From Promethearchaeota archaeon (GTDB lineage Archaea > Asgardarchaeota > Thorarchaeia > Thorarchaeales > Thorarchaeaceae), in assembly GCA_014728035.1 (NCBI GenBank), contig WJMJ01000123.1, positions 32,001 to 96,000 of the forward strand: a stretch of DNA of 64,000 nucleotides, written 5' to 3'. Shown piece after piece: positions 55,093 through 64,000 of this stretch. The notes under the pieces were generated by a model, which was not told where the DNA came from, ran no database searches, and saw only the letters and a list, made by a program, of their open reading frames with translations. The position numbers were made by a program, and so were the translations under genes. Each line of letters opens with the position of its first letter. Positions within the stretch are counted from its first letter, which is position 1.

Positions 55093-56433
55093 CTAGCTAC
55101 TATCTTTCAAGCGTATTAATGATTTTAATGAAGATGCCATCTGATTTGATATATTAACCAGAAATCTAGCTTCAGAAGGATCTGTTGTAATCTTGATAGA
55201 GAGACCAATTTTACTCAAGGCATCTTCAATAACCCTGAATTCTTCCAATTCCATAGGTGTCTGCAGTCCATTGTGAAATTGGTTTAGTAATTGATGTCCA
55301 TATGCAGTGAAGTATAGTGGTCTCGTATTGATTTTTTCATCGTCCTGATATAGCACTAATTCCTCGACCTCTTCTTTTCGTCTTTGGATTATCTTCTCTG
55401 CGAGGAAAACACAGTCTCCACAGTCCTTAACCATCTTCTTAATATCGAATAGAACGGTTATTCCTTTGTTATCGATTTGTTTACTTACTTCTTCTAACAG
55501 ATATAGTTGTAATTTTCTTCTGATTTCTTCTGAAGTCAAATCTCTTGGTAGGTTGTTTACATACTCTACAATATTTCCTTCATATCCTATGAAATAATCT
55601 AGACCATAGGATAAGAGAATAAGAGCTGAAACATGAAGAATTCTGTCATCTTCATAATATTGACCAGGATTGAAAGATTCTGAAGGTTCTGAATAAAAAA
55701 TTGCGAATTTTCTTATAGCTGTTCTAAAATCTTGATGCAGAGATTGGTTTCGTAAATCTCCTCTATTCCAACGAACATCATATCGAATATTCCTTTCTTC
55801 AAATATTTTATCGTCAATCAATTCCAAAGCTCGTAACGCAACACCTGTGAATTGTGTATCTTGTTCATGAATGAGAAATCGAGATACATCAATAGAATCA
55901 AATCTGTTCTCACCCAGAGAAACATCCTTCAAAGAATAACATGTCAGCAAAGGATCTAATTGTATCTCGGCAAGGAGATTGTTACCAAGGTCTAGTAACC
56001 GCAACTCTCCATGGTCAATAAGTGGAGCTAAATCGATTTGCCTGATTTTATTGGACGAAAGAATTATCTCCCTTAGATTTTGACAATTCTGCAAAGGTTT
56101 GAGGTCTATTTTCCTCAGTTGATTTCGATTCAAGCGAAGAATACGGAGAGCGCTTACAGATTTTAGTGGAGCAAGGTTGATCGTTTTGAGTCGATTACCA
56201 CTCAGGTATAGTTTTTCCAGACTTGAGCAATATCTGAGAGAACCGAGATTGATTTCTTCTAGGTCATTTTCGGACAGGTCTATTTCTCTGATTCTCTGAT
56301 TAGAGGAAAGTCCAGAAAGATCAATCGATTCAATTTGCTGTCCTGAGAGATTCAAAACAATCTGATGAGAGTAGATGTGAAGCGTTTCAGGAGTACCATC
56401 GCTTTTTCGCAGAAATAATGAGACTCTTCCCAT
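55093..56433 (-). CDS. Leucine-rich repeat protein with helical C-terminal domain
   Basis: About 8 repeats of LxxLxLxxNxLxxIxLxPLxxC. Confidence 0.9.
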   Translation of the reverse strand: MGRVSLFLRKSDGTPETLHIYSHQIVLNLSGQQIESIDLSGLSSNQRIREIDLSENDLEEINLGSLRYCSSLEKLYLSGNRLKTINLAPLKSVSALRILRLNRNQLRKIDLKPLQNCQNLREIILSSNKIRQIDLAPLIDHGELRLLDLGNNLLAEIQLDPLLTCYSLKDVSLGENRFDSIDVSRFLIHEQDTQFTGVALRALELIDDKIFEERNIRYDVRWNRGDLRNQSLHQDFRTAIRKFAIFYSEPSESFNPGQYYEDDRILHVSALILLSYGLDYFIGYEGNIVEYVNNLPRDLTSEEIRRKLQLYLLEEVSKQIDNKGITVLFDIKKMVKDCGDCVFLAEKIIQRRKEEVEELVLYQDDEKINTRPLYFTAYGHQLLNQFHNGLQTPMELEEFRVIEDALSKIGLSIKITTDPSEARFLVNISNQMASSLKSLIRLKDSS

Positions 56434-56862: not shown

Positions 56863-57594
56863 ATGGATCCAAGTAGTGAAGATATTGTCAGAAGAGACTA
56901 CAAGCACGGCAAGATTGCATATGGATTTCAGTGGAATATGGCAAGACATCGTGACTTGGGAAACACAGAAGGTGACTTAGCTTCTCTTTGGGCTCACCTG
57001 TTGAAAATAAAGAACGGAGTGATTCCTGAAGACCCCTTTCGGGACCCGTTCTATGGCCGTTCTTCCAAACTAAGGTTACCAAAAATGAGTTCACCTGCAA
57101 AATTGGCTTTTCGTAGAAAACTTGTTAGAAATGGAACTGTAATCAAGGATGTATCAAACCCCCTTGTATCGTTCATTAGGGATTTTCATTTTCAACGTGA
57201 TGATCACAGCTTTAGAGCGGATCATAGTATTCTTCAGGATTTTCTGTATGAAGATTCCCGCGCTATTGCAATTGAAGTCCCAGTTTGGTCTGAGCGATAC
57301 AAGATTTCTGGACACATTGATTTGATTCGTTTTTCAGATGAAAAAATTCAGGTTTGTGACTATAAACCAGGTCCCTTGGATAGTGTAGCAAAGCGTTTTT
57401 TGGATTCAATTCCTCAGGTCGCATCTTATGGAGAAATGCTATCGCACCACCTCTCTCAGACCCTTAGAAGTGCATTGGATGCATCTTTTCTTCCCAAAGT
57501 TGAGTGTTGTATCTTTGACACACATTCATGTTGGAGATTCGATTCTAATCTTTTTGTCACATTGGAAATGACAGATAAAATAGTCGGTCTTTAA
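56863..57594 (+). CDS. PD-(D/E)xK nuclease superfamily protein (RecB/Cas4-like motifs, no Fe-S cysteines)
   Basis: IEVPV...SGHIDLI...CDYKP...QVASY (motifs II, III and QxxxY). Confidence 0.82.
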   Translation: MDPSSEDIVRRDYKHGKIAYGFQWNMARHRDLGNTEGDLASLWAHLLKIKNGVIPEDPFRDPFYGRSSKLRLPKMSSPAKLAFRRKLVRNGTVIKDVSNPLVSFIRDFHFQRDDHSFRADHSILQDFLYEDSRAIAIEVPVWSERYKISGHIDLIRFSDEKIQVCDYKPGPLDSVAKRFLDSIPQVASYGEMLSHHLSQTLRSALDASFLPKVECCIFDTHSCWRFDSNLFVTLEMTDKIVGL

Positions 57595-58427
57595 TTTTGA
57601 CCATTATTATAGAGTGACATTTTCACGCTCTCTTCAATTAATGGACGCTCTGGAGAACTCCTTGACCATTTCAGTTGAAGTGTGGGGCGTTCTGAAACTA
57701 GTCCTTCTCTAATTCTTGAAAAGTAGTTTTCATTGAGTGTTCCAAATCTACCAAGAGCCGGATCAATAGGAATCCACCCTACGTTTTCAAGGAACACTTC
57801 TGCCCATGCATGAGGTTCAGGTTCTTGAGCCCCCCGATAATAATGTCCAACAACTCTTCTAGAAGGAATCTTGACGGCTCTAGTCAAAGCTATGAATAAA
57901 TCTGCGTGCTCATCACAATCCCCCTCTTTTCTTCGTGCTGCAAGAGCTGCACCCAACCTCTCATCTAGATGAGTTTTCAGCTTCACTTGTTCTCGCACAA
58001 CTTGAAATGCAATTTTTGAGTATGTCAAGTCATTATTGCTTCGTTCTGCAATCAACTCAGACAACTCTTGAATTATGGGTTCTTCAGTTTCCCAATACTG
58101 TTTCATGGAGCAGAATTGTCCACAAGTTCTTTTTATCTCGTTTTTTGTGGTTCTTTGTGGTTCCATTAACCAATCCCGAGTTGTAGTGTCCATTCTCATA
58201 ATTGCCGTAGGTTGAAAATTCTCTCCTGGGCTGAGTTCTGGTACTTTAATGATGGCTACCATGTTATTCTCCGCTTTTTCAACTACTCTGGCTGGTGGAA
58301 ATACATCAAACATTCGCACAAATTGGTTATCCATGTCTGTAAAAAGATGCCAAATCATCTTTCCATCTCTAATCTTTGATGAACCTCTGTTTCGTATGTT
58401 TGCTTCCATTTCCACCATAAGTCTCAA
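57591..58427 (-). CDS. Transglutaminase-like cysteine protease/hydrolase
   Basis: GDCDEHA, IPSRRVVG, HAWAEV...GWIPIDP (Cys-His-Asp triad). Confidence 0.9.
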   Translation of the reverse strand: MRLMVEMEANIRNRGSSKIRDGKMIWHLFTDMDNQFVRMFDVFPPARVVEKAENNMVAIIKVPELSPGENFQPTAIMRMDTTTRDWLMEPQRTTKNEIKRTCGQFCSMKQYWETEEPIIQELSELIAERSNNDLTYSKIAFQVVREQVKLKTHLDERLGAALAARRKEGDCDEHADLFIALTRAVKIPSRRVVGHYYRGAQEPEPHAWAEVFLENVGWIPIDPALGRFGTLNENYFSRIREGLVSERPTLQLKWSRSSPERPLIEESVKMSLYNNGQN

Positions 58428-58529
58428 ACGGTATTACCTCTGTCCTGTTCTAATTCAAAAACACATCCGAATAGATTTATGTGTTATCAGGACTTCTCTT
58501 TCAATATCACTTACTTTAGGTGTCGCGTA

Positions 58530-59996
58530 ATGTCTGATAAGAAAAAAGAGGCTGATGCTGATCGTTTGGATGTCAAAGATGCTGAAGGTGTAGTTGGCAA
58601 ATTGTTAGCTGAACTCGGTGTTGATGATGATATGAAACAGGAATTAGTTGATTCTGGGAGATTAAGTGGTGATGTCTTTCGAGTTGAAAGTGCAGACCAA
58701 GTACGTCGAAGAATTGAGATAGAAAAAAGTGGGGATAGGTTACGCGAAACCCTGCATTTGGTTGAGAGGTCTCTTATCTCAACAGAAGAAACAGTTGATA
58801 GTATTGAACGAGATATAATCCCCGTTGTTCTATCGTTTTTGGTAGGTCTAAAGGGGAAATTGGTTAATCTTAGAAATTCAGTTATCCAGAAGGGAAAGAA
58901 ACAAGCTAAGACTGCTTTGCAAGCTAATTATGTAGATAACCAAATCCGTGAAATCATGGAAACTGAATTTGAGGTGATTGAAAGTTCTCTTACTTCTGGA
59001 ATGTCTACACCCGTTCTACAAAAAGTACGAGACGTTGCTGAAGAATTAAAGCAGTCAGTCCGTTCTACTTATGATGACTTATCTAATCTAAAATCCAATT
59101 TTGATGATTACCTGCAGAAATCCGTCACTGAGATGGAATTTCTTGCGAAAGCATTGAGTATGAAACCTCGTGTTGAAGTACCAAAAGAAATTGAAGAAGA
59201 TATGAAGGCGCTTCAAAGAACTAATGAAGAACTAAAGAGAGATCTAGAATTGTCAAGACAAAAACTTGAGAATCGTGAATCTGACATCCAAAGACTTCGA
59301 GTTGATTTGTCAACCTCTAAACTCAGAATAGATTCTCTAGAAGATCAACTTGCTGATGCCAAATCCACTCCTACTGATATGGCTGATATTTCAGAATTAA
59401 GAATGAAAATCAAGAGCATTGAGGCATCTAGAGATTTACTCTCTCAAAAAGTAAACGAAGCTGAAGATCGTGCTGAAAAAGCGAAGGCCGAAGCGAGATT
59501 AGCAAAAGCAGAACTTGACAAGCGTGATTTGACCATTGCAGAGGTAAATACTAGAATTCGTCAGTTAGAAGAAGAGATTGAGGAAAGCAAAAAATTACAA
59601 TCTCGCGTGGATGACTTAAAGTCGCAGATCAGAACATTGGAATCTGGTGATCAAGTACGTGAACTTGGTCGAACAAAAACAGAACTAGAGAGAGCCAAGG
59701 CTAATCTCGATAGAATGTCAAAAGAATATGTTGAGATGCGACACAAACTTGATCATACTCTGGCTCGAATTGATTCCTATATGGGTGTCATGCAAAACAC
59801 AGAGAAAACCAAGGCCTTTCTGATGGTTGAAGAAACTGGTGAACTATCTATCAGAGAAGTAGCAAGATCTGTTGGAGTCAGTCCTGCGGTTGTTAGAACA
59901 TGGGCTGAAGACTTCCAAAAACTAGGAATTGCTGATTTGGTTGACGATACAACATTGGTATTAACGCTTGGGAAGAAAAAAGAAGATAGTGACTAA
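58530..59996 (+). CDS. Long coiled-coil protein with C-terminal winged helix
   Basis: Start moved to MSDKKKE (AGGTG RBS). More than 200 aa of heptads; C-terminal GELSIREVARSVGVSPAVVRTW HTH. No Walker motifs. Confidence 0.82.
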   Translation: MSDKKKEADADRLDVKDAEGVVGKLLAELGVDDDMKQELVDSGRLSGDVFRVESADQVRRRIEIEKSGDRLRETLHLVERSLISTEETVDSIERDIIPVVLSFLVGLKGKLVNLRNSVIQKGKKQAKTALQANYVDNQIREIMETEFEVIESSLTSGMSTPVLQKVRDVAEELKQSVRSTYDDLSNLKSNFDDYLQKSVTEMEFLAKALSMKPRVEVPKEIEEDMKALQRTNEELKRDLELSRQKLENRESDIQRLRVDLSTSKLRIDSLEDQLADAKSTPTDMADISELRMKIKSIEASRDLLSQKVNEAEDRAEKAKAEARLAKAELDKRDLTIAEVNTRIRQLEEEIEESKKLQSRVDDLKSQIRTLESGDQVRELGRTKTELERAKANLDRMSKEYVEMRHKLDHTLARIDSYMGVMQNTEKTKAFLMVEETGELSIREVARSVGVSPAVVRTWAEDFQKLGIADLVDDTTLVLTLGKKKEDSD

Positions 59997-61601: not shown

Positions 61602-61705
61602 GCTGCAAATTGCACAAAAATAATCAGATTAGAATAATTTGTAACGCGAATGTTCATGTAGAAGCATCGAACTAAGTTTATTTAGGCTCTTGAAGTATCG
61701 TTAAA

Positions 61706-62563
61706 GTGATGATGCAAGCAGAATTGGACGATGAGAAGGTTAGATACATCTCTATAGTCCGCAAAGAGGGCGGCGAGCCTATCATTGGAATACCTTATCG
61801 AGAGATGAGTGTAGACCCTGATCTTGTTGCGTCTTTTGTTCTTGCAATTATCATTTTTGAAAATCGGCAGCTCAAAACCTTTACCAAAGAAGGATATGTT
61901 GTAATTATTGAAGAAGGTGAGCAAGTAGTCAGTCTTTTAATTATTGACCGGGTTGAAGATGACTCCGCGTATAGAACTACTTTAGCAAAAATGACAGAAC
62001 GATTTGAGTCTGAATACGAATCTCTACTTGATGCTTGGAAAGGGGATATTAGACCCTTTCGAGAGTTTGCTTTGGGGATTCTTGAATCCTTTCCATATCG
62101 TATTCTGGATGAGTCATTGGTTCCTAAACTCGTAAGCAAGTCTGATGCTGCTCCTGATCATCGTTCTGAAATTCCGTGGAGCGTTGGAAAAACCCATGAG
62201 AAAATCCATAAGATTCTGAATTTTATTAACGGGAAACGGTCCATTGAAGAAATTGTCAGTACTTCAGGAATGCCAAAAAGCGAAGTAATGGCTATTTTTT
62301 CTTTACTTGACCGATATAATTGGGTAACACTATCTCCAAAAATCACACCCTCAGTGTGTTTGCAAAAAGTCACAAAACCACCCGATTTCCTTATTGCTGT
62401 ATATGGAGAACAAATCTCCAATCTTGTTGAGTTATGTGATGGTACTCGTACACTTGGAGAAGTGAGTGATATGCTTCCCTACAGCATTGAGGTAGTAACA
62501 GTCGTATCAAAAACCCTCATTGATTATGGTGTTCTTCGATACACCCCCGAGGAGGAGCAATGA
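61706..62563 (+). CDS. Longin-like domain + tandem winged-helix protein (NPRL2-like architecture), paralogue A
   Basis: N-terminal RYISIVRKEGGEPI...DPDLVASFVLAI...F (longin-type); C-terminal ILNFINGKRSIEEI and LCDGTRTLGEV wHTH repeats. Confidence 0.75.
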   Translation: MMMQAELDDEKVRYISIVRKEGGEPIIGIPYREMSVDPDLVASFVLAIIIFENRQLKTFTKEGYVVIIEEGEQVVSLLIIDRVEDDSAYRTTLAKMTERFESEYESLLDAWKGDIRPFREFALGILESFPYRILDESLVPKLVSKSDAAPDHRSEIPWSVGKTHEKIHKILNFINGKRSIEEIVSTSGMPKSEVMAIFSLLDRYNWVTLSPKITPSVCLQKVTKPPDFLIAVYGEQISNLVELCDGTRTLGEVSDMLPYSIEVVTVVSKTLIDYGVLRYTPEEEQ

Positions 62564-62671
62564 TGAGTCTACTATCAGAGTCCAACAGAACTTGGATACT
62601 TTTTTATAGACCAACAATGCAGAACTTGGAGGAGCAGTTACGTACCATCGAATTTATGTTTAGGAGTATGT

Positions 62672-63511
62672 GTGCATTTGGCTGTTGATGTATCTAGGAT
62701 AAGGTATGTATCAATAATTAGACTTGAAGGTGGTGAATCTATCTTGAGTCTACCATATGCCACCATGACCGTGGATCCAGATTTGATTGCTGGATTTGTT
62801 ACTGCGGTCATCATTTTTGCTAAAACCCCTATTCGGACGATACGAAAAGCAGCTTATGATATCCTCATAGAGGTTGGTAAACAAGTTCTTATTCTACTTG
62901 TTGTCGACCCTGTTCCTGATGAAACCCCCTATCGAAACCAACTAAAAGAAATACTCAAGAAATTTGAAACTCGTTATGAGGAATCTCTATCAGACTTTGA
63001 TGGTGATATCCGGCTTTTTCGAGAGTTTTGTTTCTCTATCCTTGTCCACTTTCCTTACCACCAAATAGATCATGATTTGGTCCCACTAAAACGTAAAGGC
63101 GAACAGATTCCATATAGAGTCGGTGAAGTGGACGAAAAGATGGAGGAGTTTGAGGATTTCATAAATGGTAAGCGTTCTCTCGGTGAGATTGTTAATCGAA
63201 TTGCATTGACTGATGGAGAGGTCATGGCTGTCGCTTCAGCATTAGCCAAATTCAAATGGATTCACTTTAAGAAACCACTAACCAATAAAGATGTTCTAGT
63301 AAGACTAGAATGTGACCCCATGGTTATAGAGAGATTGAAAGCACAATATGGTAAACCCGTAGATGACCTGATTAGATGTTTCGATGGCTCTCAGGAAATT
63401 CAGGAAATAACACAAACTTTGCCTTATGATACCAGTGCAATTTGGTTTCTAATCAATCTGTTAGTTGATACTGGATGTTTAGGTTTGGCGGGATTGCAAC
63501 CACTAGGCTAG
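62672..63511 (+). CDS. Longin-like domain + tandem winged-helix protein (NPRL2-like architecture), paralogue B
   Basis: RYVSIIRLEGGESI...DPDLIAGFVTAV; FINGKRSLGEI and CFDGSQEIQEI; GDIRxFREF shared with paralogue A. Confidence 0.75.
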   Translation: MHLAVDVSRIRYVSIIRLEGGESILSLPYATMTVDPDLIAGFVTAVIIFAKTPIRTIRKAAYDILIEVGKQVLILLVVDPVPDETPYRNQLKEILKKFETRYEESLSDFDGDIRLFREFCFSILVHFPYHQIDHDLVPLKRKGEQIPYRVGEVDEKMEEFEDFINGKRSLGEIVNRIALTDGEVMAVASALAKFKWIHFKKPLTNKDVLVRLECDPMVIERLKAQYGKPVDDLIRCFDGSQEIQEITQTLPYDTSAIWFLINLLVDTGCLGLAGLQPLG

Positions 63512-64000
63512 AGTATTTCATCCTGTCCGGGAACTCCAACAACATCACTTCTACATTGTTTGCAATGGAGAAATTGGGGGATAAAACTACTTGTTTCGTT
63601 ACGTGTTTTGTCCAATTCTTCTTGTGTTGGACTTCGATACCTTGTAGCACTATCCCATGGAATTAATGGTACAATGTTTTGTAATTTCGCACCGTGTTTC
63701 CGAATCTGTCTAGACAAATCCAATATTTCATTACCGTTGATTTCAGGAATTAAAATTGTATTAACTTTGATTAGAATTCCTGCTTCACTCGCATCACTGA
63801 TACCTGAAAGTTGTGATTCTAGAATATGTGAGGCCATATCAGAACCAGTAATTCTTTTTCCTTTGATTACTATCCATTCATAGATTTTTTCTATAGACGA
63901 TTCTTTTACTGATGACATTGTGACAGATACTGTTTCTACATTCAATTCTACAAGTTTCGATACACATGATGAGAGTAGTGTTCCATTTGTACTCAAGCAG
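63508..64000 (-). CDS. NifB-like radical SAM protein, C-terminal part (5' end outside the window)
   Basis: CLSTNG, TVSVT, KVNTILIPEIN, NIVPLIP, HCKQCRSD match the NifB-type C-terminal signature. Confidence 0.8.
   Translation of the reverse strand, partial: CLSTNGTLLSSCVSKLVELNVETVSVTMSSVKESSIEKIYEWIVIKGKRITGSDMASHILESQLSGISDASEAGILIKVNTILIPEINGNEILDLSRQIRKHGAKLQNIVPLIPWDSATRYRSPTQEELDKTRNETSSFIPQFLHCKQCRSDVVGVPGQDEIL

Follow-up and report, generated by a model that had tools for sequence, protein, structure and literature searches.

Two adjacent NPRL2-like longin and winged-helix genes in a Thorarchaeota-type genome

Two adjacent genes, here called A and B, were studied in a window of 64,000 nucleotides (nt) (C94:32001-96000) of a Thorarchaeota-type genome (4.3 Mb, 98% complete, 8.5% contamination). 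An initial annotation, made from the letters of the window, described them as a proto-GATOR1 pair resembling NPRL2 and NPRL3, and the question posed by the locus is whether they are an archaeal precursor of GATOR1. In eukaryotes, membrane traffic and nutrient signalling rely on longin and roadblock platforms and small GTPases as central components, whose Asgard relatives bear on the origin of these systems.

A and B form a real, ordinary and well-conserved gene pair, with a putative function, within an Asgard family that has already been published. We consider it probable that they represent two thorarchaeal copies of the 'NPRL2-like' family of Asgard archaea with a role as a regulatory GTPase platform. 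This family was reported 'in most Thor MAGs' (metagenome-assembled genomes; Liu et al., bioRxiv 10.1101/2020.10.19.343400; Nature 2021). The available part of that report describes an N-terminal longin domain, a small NPRL2-type C-terminal domain and occurrence in most Thorarchaeota, all of which were found for A and B, and by this description both proteins belong to the known family. The same part of the text is silent on the tandem arrangement of A and B, on the lineage-specific origin of the pair, on the loss of A in one genus and on the arginine-finger site. The locus raises no new question, since the family is published and the pair appears to be a lineage-specific duplication and not the ancestor of NPRL2/NPRL3.

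Fold and architecture of A and B

The two genes encode co-oriented paralogues of 285 and 279 amino acids (aa), and their coordinates and plus-strand orientation were as initially annotated (Table 1). A and B were 39% identical over 274 residues in a BLASTP comparison (E 2e-68), which places their paralogy far beyond chance. The common N-terminal domain of about 125 aa that had been described is present, but the likeness is not confined to it and spans the whole length of the proteins. All the motifs quoted for the pair (RY.SI.R.EGGE, VDPDL, GDIR.FREF, LVP, FINGKRS..EI and DG...LPY) were recovered.

An AlphaFold2 model of A, made with an alignment of 28 sequences of diverse homologues, had a mean predicted local distance difference test score (pLDDT) of 89.7 and a predicted template modelling score (pTM) of 0.84. 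Residues 12-128 of this model run through strands and helices in the longin order, in agreement with the fold originally proposed for the N-terminal domain, and two winged-helix units follow (Table 1). A Foldseek search of the PDB with the full-length model returned chains of NPRL2, NPRL3 and yeast Npr2 at ranks 1-12 (E 9e-8 to 2e-5), and these alignments run over 320-380 columns, so that both the longin and the winged-helix parts are covered. Single-domain longins (AP sigma, zeta-COP and VAMP7) and roadblocks ranked below these chains. In a whole-model rigid-body alignment Sec22b, VAMP7, Ykt6 and Fuzzy were placed above NPRL2. This ranking of generic longins arises because one domain dominates the list. 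To overcome it, the winged helices were examined by themselves in a model of the C-terminal half (pLDDT 89.4), for which Foldseek placed NPRL2, NPRL3 and Npr2 at ranks 1-11. At the level of predicted models, the likeness of A and B to NPRL2 and NPRL3 in structure is firmly supported, and the models confirm a predicted full NPRL2-type core, a longin domain with tandem winged helices, in Thorarchaeota.

NPRL2 and NPRL3 consist of a longin domain and two or more winged helix-turn-helix repeats (Levine et al., PMC3747258). A and B share with the NPRL2/NPRL3 (Npr2/Npr3, GATOR1/SEACIT) pair the order and mutual placement of the domains, with an N-terminal longin domain and the tandem winged helices behind it, the presence of two paralogous subunits, and a weak but top-ranked sequence similarity of the winged helices. 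When the family profile was compared with PDB sequences, the best match was human NPRL2 (E 2e-4), in which the second winged helix was aligned to NPRL2 residues 170-237. The proposed affinity of the winged helices to NPRL2 was thus found in sequence as well as in structure. A match to HTH_NPRL3 (PF24064) remained below the Pfam threshold (21.5 bits, cut-off 27.2). A and B differ from NPRL2/NPRL3 in being about 100-300 residues shorter and in having no further C-terminal domain. Matches to DUF742 (E 0.02), HTH_47, TrmB and IclR were discarded as sub-threshold generic winged-helix signals. Searches of the ESM Atlas by features and by shape returned archaeal hypothetical clusters only, with no eukaryotic NPR2 cluster among them.

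The MglB and Ragulator (LAMTOR) roadblock dimers are GTPase platforms of a related fold, they occur as lower-rank structural matches, and a Roadblock/LC7 gene lies near A and B. Robl_LC7 (Pfam) gave no match to A or B. Their longin topology (two starting strands, no N-terminal helix, two C-terminal helices) differs from that of these dimers, as do the two extra winged helices. The roadblock order helix-strand-strand-helix-strand-strand-strand was not seen in the model of A, and roadblock structures ranked below longins.

Conservation and origin of the pair

A search for homologues yielded 240 proteins, and every one that was named by its source came from Thorarchaeota, Promethearchaeota or Sifarchaeia; the close ones are hypothetical proteins. 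Among 121 Asgard genomes, the family to which the studied genome belongs is represented by 17, all of which contain a homologue. The arrangement of the pair recurs in 14 of these 17 genomes, where A is followed by an adjacent and co-oriented B. The spacing of A and B in the relatives varies between an overlap of 4 nt and a gap of 133 nt, and the genes overlap or are at most 3 nt apart in 6 of the 14. Genus g4 (3 genomes) has B only, and in both g4 loci that were fetched (L034 and L035, genomes G027 and G037) B is placed between two radical SAM genes.

A maximum-likelihood tree of the archaeal homologues contains an A clade and a B clade, each with support of 99. The single copies of g4 nest inside the B clade, indicating that A was lost in g4, and the retention of B alone makes an obligate A-B heterodimer doubtful. 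The sister family's sole copy branches outside the clade of A, B and further Thor paralogues (support 94), from which it follows that the duplication is the lineage's own. B is the more conserved of the two (mean pairwise identity 64%, compared to 57% for A). Judged from these archaeal sequences, nothing suggests that the A/B duplication gave rise to the division of NPRL2 and NPRL3 in eukaryotes. It appears to be independent and Thor-specific, and the designation as an archaeal precursor of GATOR1 is not supported, since a duplication within the Thor lineage does not establish the pair as the origin of NPRL2/NPRL3.

Several further homologues were noted. A contig of 6.8 kb carries a third full-length paralogue with 35% identity to A (L003; G000:C36:1360-2145). 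None of the other family genomes sampled showed a member of its clade (P0126), and given the contamination of 8.5% it may come from another organism. Five proteins of 312-337 aa (P0128, P0130, P0132, P0139 and P0145) show 47-68% identity to B over the first 100 or so residues only and differ from it thereafter. A scan of P0128, made for this one of the five, gave no Pfam domain, and frameshifts or chimerism in the gene calls may account for the five.

Small GTPases and possible modes of action

The link to small GTPases that had been suggested for the pair is plausible, as paralogues in the same genome are fused to GTPases or adjoin them. In a 622-aa paralogue a small GTPase domain precedes the longin and winged-helix domains (Table 1). 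The GTPase domain matches the Pfam families Arf (4e-18) and Gtr1_RagA (2e-5) and contains the motifs GSGGVGKST, DFAGQ and NKQD. This fusion recurs in relatives (P0138 and P0151), and frames of 640-680 aa occur in most genomes of the family. A gene for a Ras-family GTPase lies 3' of the one for a 422-aa paralogue. The fusion and neighbourhood evidence newly ties the NPRL2-like module to small GTPases, of which the genome offers 14 matches to the Gtr1_RagA profile and 37 to the Arf profile. Together, the fusion, the adjoining Ras gene, a TRAPP/Bet3 neighbour and the synteny with Roadblock/LC7 make small-GTPase regulation the best-supported function, which, as deduced from sequence, A and B may share. 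The TRAPP/Bet3 gene (PF04051) lies 2 nt beyond the gene of P0141, a distant 370-aa homologue with a third winged-helix repeat (L020:5001-6631). A 571-aa paralogue in which no GTPase is recognisable is located directly upstream of the 622-aa one (L014:6079-7794).

Longin and roadblock dimers are GTPase platforms with an interface of strand 3 and helix 1, and MglB functions without contributing an arginine finger (Levine et al., PMC3747258). In the proposed mechanism the two proteins, each built of a longin domain and a rigid pair of winged helices with the domain order and mutual arrangement of the NPRL2/NPRL3 core, would dimerise through longin helix 1 and strand 3 by analogy with other longin and roadblock proteins. 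The dimer may be A-B, and B-B would also have to work where A has been lost. Such a dimer would serve as docking platform and regulator for one of the many small GTPases of the genome, with the acidic winged helices presumably making protein-protein contacts rather than binding DNA. GTP hydrolysis, if it is stimulated at all, may be stimulated in the manner of MglB or by an arginine other than the canonical one (R19, R90, R116 or R119), and a role as guanine nucleotide exchange factor (GEF) or as scaffold is equally open. A more specific version, in which an A/B longin heterodimer, perhaps with the downstream Roadblock protein, regulates a thorarchaeal Rag/Arf-like GTPase without a canonical arginine finger, is a tentative idea that we regard as less likely than not. 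If true, it would make the pair a minimal working prokaryotic counterpart of GATOR1/Ragulator logic that arose from an independent duplication.

The initial annotation had been unable to identify the catalytic arginine by eye. Arg78 of human NPRL2, whose sequence was partly reproduced in the profile search, is located in what we take to be the loop between longin strands 4 and 5, and its equivalent in A and B was placed by the order of secondary structure elements and this presumed position. On that basis neither clade has an arginine at the Arg78 position, so that any action as GTPase-activating protein (GAP) would have to be MglB-like or depend on a different arginine. R13, R19, R90, R116 and R119 are conserved in both clades. 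Just ahead of strand 2, the loop sequence is GGEP in all 15 orthologues of A and GGES in 13 of the 16 orthologues of B, and G23 is almost invariant throughout the family. Longin GAPs, a group with NPRL2, FLCN, SMCR8 and C9orf72, are marked by a GP motif before strand 2 together with an arginine finger, and the GP motif is present in NPRL2 and not in NPRL3 (PMC12290439, 2025, Traffic). The proline in the GGEP of A is one residue off a true GP motif. FLCN-FNIP, C9orf72-SMCR8 and the GP-motif longins of Asgard archaea (PMC12290439) resemble A and B in being longin pairs with a glycine-containing loop before strand 2. They regulate Rag/Arf GTPases, contain DENN domains instead of tandem winged helices, and combine a true GP with an arginine finger, whereas A and B have GGEP or GGES and no arginine at the turn.

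Besides the loss of A in g4, a number of results weigh against taking A and B as an NPRL2-like pair that regulates a GTPase. The turn between strands 4 and 5 is tight (EEG.. throughout the A orthologues and EVG.. throughout those of B) and has no conserved arginine. No GTPase gene was found on the 104-kb contig C94 in whole-genome searches with the Arf and Gtr1_RagA profiles, as had been remarked for the window. The Pfam families NPR2 (PF06218) and NPR3 (PF03666) gave no match to A or B up to E 10, and a PF06218 profile search of the genome gave none up to E 1. A profile of the longin part produced no significant match to PDB sequences (best E 0.19, to an unrelated protein; MON1 0.41), and the longin domain is structurally as near to Sec22b or VAMP7 as to NPRL2. 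In the models this domain is linked to NPRL2 by fold and architecture. Substitutions specific to A or B were not significantly enriched in the predicted helix 1/strand 3 interface (Fisher p 0.06-0.15, conservation controlled). B has its own ribosome-binding site in this genome, with AGGAG at 62662-62666 of the A-B spacer, 5 nt 5' of the GTG start, and possibly its own promoter; a T6/TATA-like run lies at 62600-62608.

A true proto-GATOR1 would be an obligate A-B heterodimer serving as GAP for a Rag-like GTPase by means of an arginine finger, with A as the catalytic, NPRL2-like subunit and B as the non-catalytic, NPRL3-like one. The architecture and the best structural matches, the conservation and close spacing of the gene pair and the Gtr1/RagA-like profile matches in the genome agree with this, and GGEP in A and GGES in B recall the presence of GP in NPRL2 but not in NPRL3 (PMC12290439). 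The displaced proline and the lineage-specific duplication speak against it, and A, the supposed catalytic subunit, is the less conserved one. IML1/DEPDC5 (PF12257) had no match in the 98%-complete genome, though the control of this search had no match in any of 14 genomes either. The missing arginine and the loss of A in g4 in particular lead us to disfavour an obligate arginine-finger GAP heterodimer, and we regard a proto-GATOR1 in this full sense as unlikely. What stands of that designation is the NPRL2-like architecture and a plausible GTPase link; the catalytic arginine, an IML1/DEPDC5 partner and a Pfam NPR2 match were not found.

It is considerably less probable that A and B are PqqD/RRE-like peptide-binding partners of the flanking radical SAM enzymes, with winged helices that offer a peptide or protein as substrate to the AmmeMemoRadiSam or the NifB-like one. 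Radical SAM genes flank the pair on both sides in a conserved arrangement, and weak PqqD matches were obtained (NCBIfam E 0.004 and 0.02), but with 17.2 and 14.7 bits these fall short of the cut-off, which is 46. The upstream enzyme is of the housekeeping AmmeMemoRadiSam type (298 bits, above the cut-off) and the downstream one is NifB-like, and both reach at most 32 bits with SPASM peptide-maturase models, for which the cut-offs are at least 300. Moreover, distant homologues have no radical SAM neighbours, the paralogues are fused or adjacent to GTPases and not to radical SAM enzymes, and RRE domains score well below NPRL2 in the structure search with the C-terminal half. The least credible alternative, transcription regulators with a longin-like sensor and two DNA-binding winged helices, draws on weak winged helix-turn-helix matches to the MarR, IclR, TrmB, ArsR and Lrp families, but these DNA-binding families score lower and cover one domain only, both proteins (isoelectric points 4.8 and 5.2) and both winged-helix halves are acidic (isoelectric points 4.8-5.4 and net charges -4 to -15 in all), the third ('recognition') helices are hydrophobic or acidic, and within GATOR1 the homologous NPRL2/3 domains engage in protein contacts, which makes DNA binding by A or B unlikely.

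Locus and neighbouring genes

The coordinates of A, B, the neighbouring genes and the paralogues linked to GTPases are collected in Table 1.

Table 1. Features of the A/B locus and of related loci in the same genome. Positions are those of the window unless a contig or locus is named.
Feature	Position	Strand	Description
ORF A	61706-62563	+	285 aa, GTG start; NPRL2-like, longin domain and two winged helices
A longin domain	61706-62110	+	Residues ~1-135; strand-strand-helix-strand-strand-strand-helix-helix
A tandem winged-helix domains	62177-62542	+	Residues ~158-221 and ~227-279
A-B spacer	62564-62671	+	108 nt, read from sequence
ORF B	62672-63511	+	279 aa, GTG start; paralogue of A, same architecture
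B longin domain	~62672-63070	+	
B winged helices	~63071-63508	+	
NifB-like radical SAM gene	63508-63999, continues past window end	-	Converges on B
Roadblock/LC7 gene	C94:96342-96731 (L013:3343-3732)	-	130 aa; Pfam E 8e-12; ~340 nt past window end
Leucine-rich-repeat protein	55093-56433	-	Upstream neighbour in conserved synteny
Transglutaminase-core protein	57591-58427	-	Upstream neighbour in conserved synteny
505-aa coiled-coil protein	58479-59996	+	Upstream neighbour in conserved synteny; C-terminal helix-turn-helix
622-aa paralogue	L014:7956-9824 (G000:C45:135955-137820)		N-terminal ~120-aa domain, small GTPase, longin and two winged helices
422-aa paralogue	L015:2941-4209 (G000:C141)		Same N-terminal longin, weak HTH_NPRL3 match
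Ras-family GTPase gene	L015:4585-5091 (G000:C141)	Same as 422-aa paralogue	168 aa, 3' of 422-aa paralogue; Pfam Ras 3e-41

No DUF2797 gene is present at 61602-61705 of the window; in other Thorarchaeota a gene of this type (~297 aa) is located between the AmmeMemoRadiSam gene and A (L009:7071-7964, L012:7071-7964 and L018:665-1489). The Roadblock/LC7 gene is the second gene downstream of B, on the opposite strand, and a gap of 3 nt lies between it and the NifB-like radical SAM gene. It is followed by genes for a 333-aa unknown protein, a coiled-coil protein and Topo VI A/B, and the order from the NifB-like radical SAM gene through the Roadblock gene and these two proteins to Topo VI is kept in other Thorarchaeota (L009-L012).
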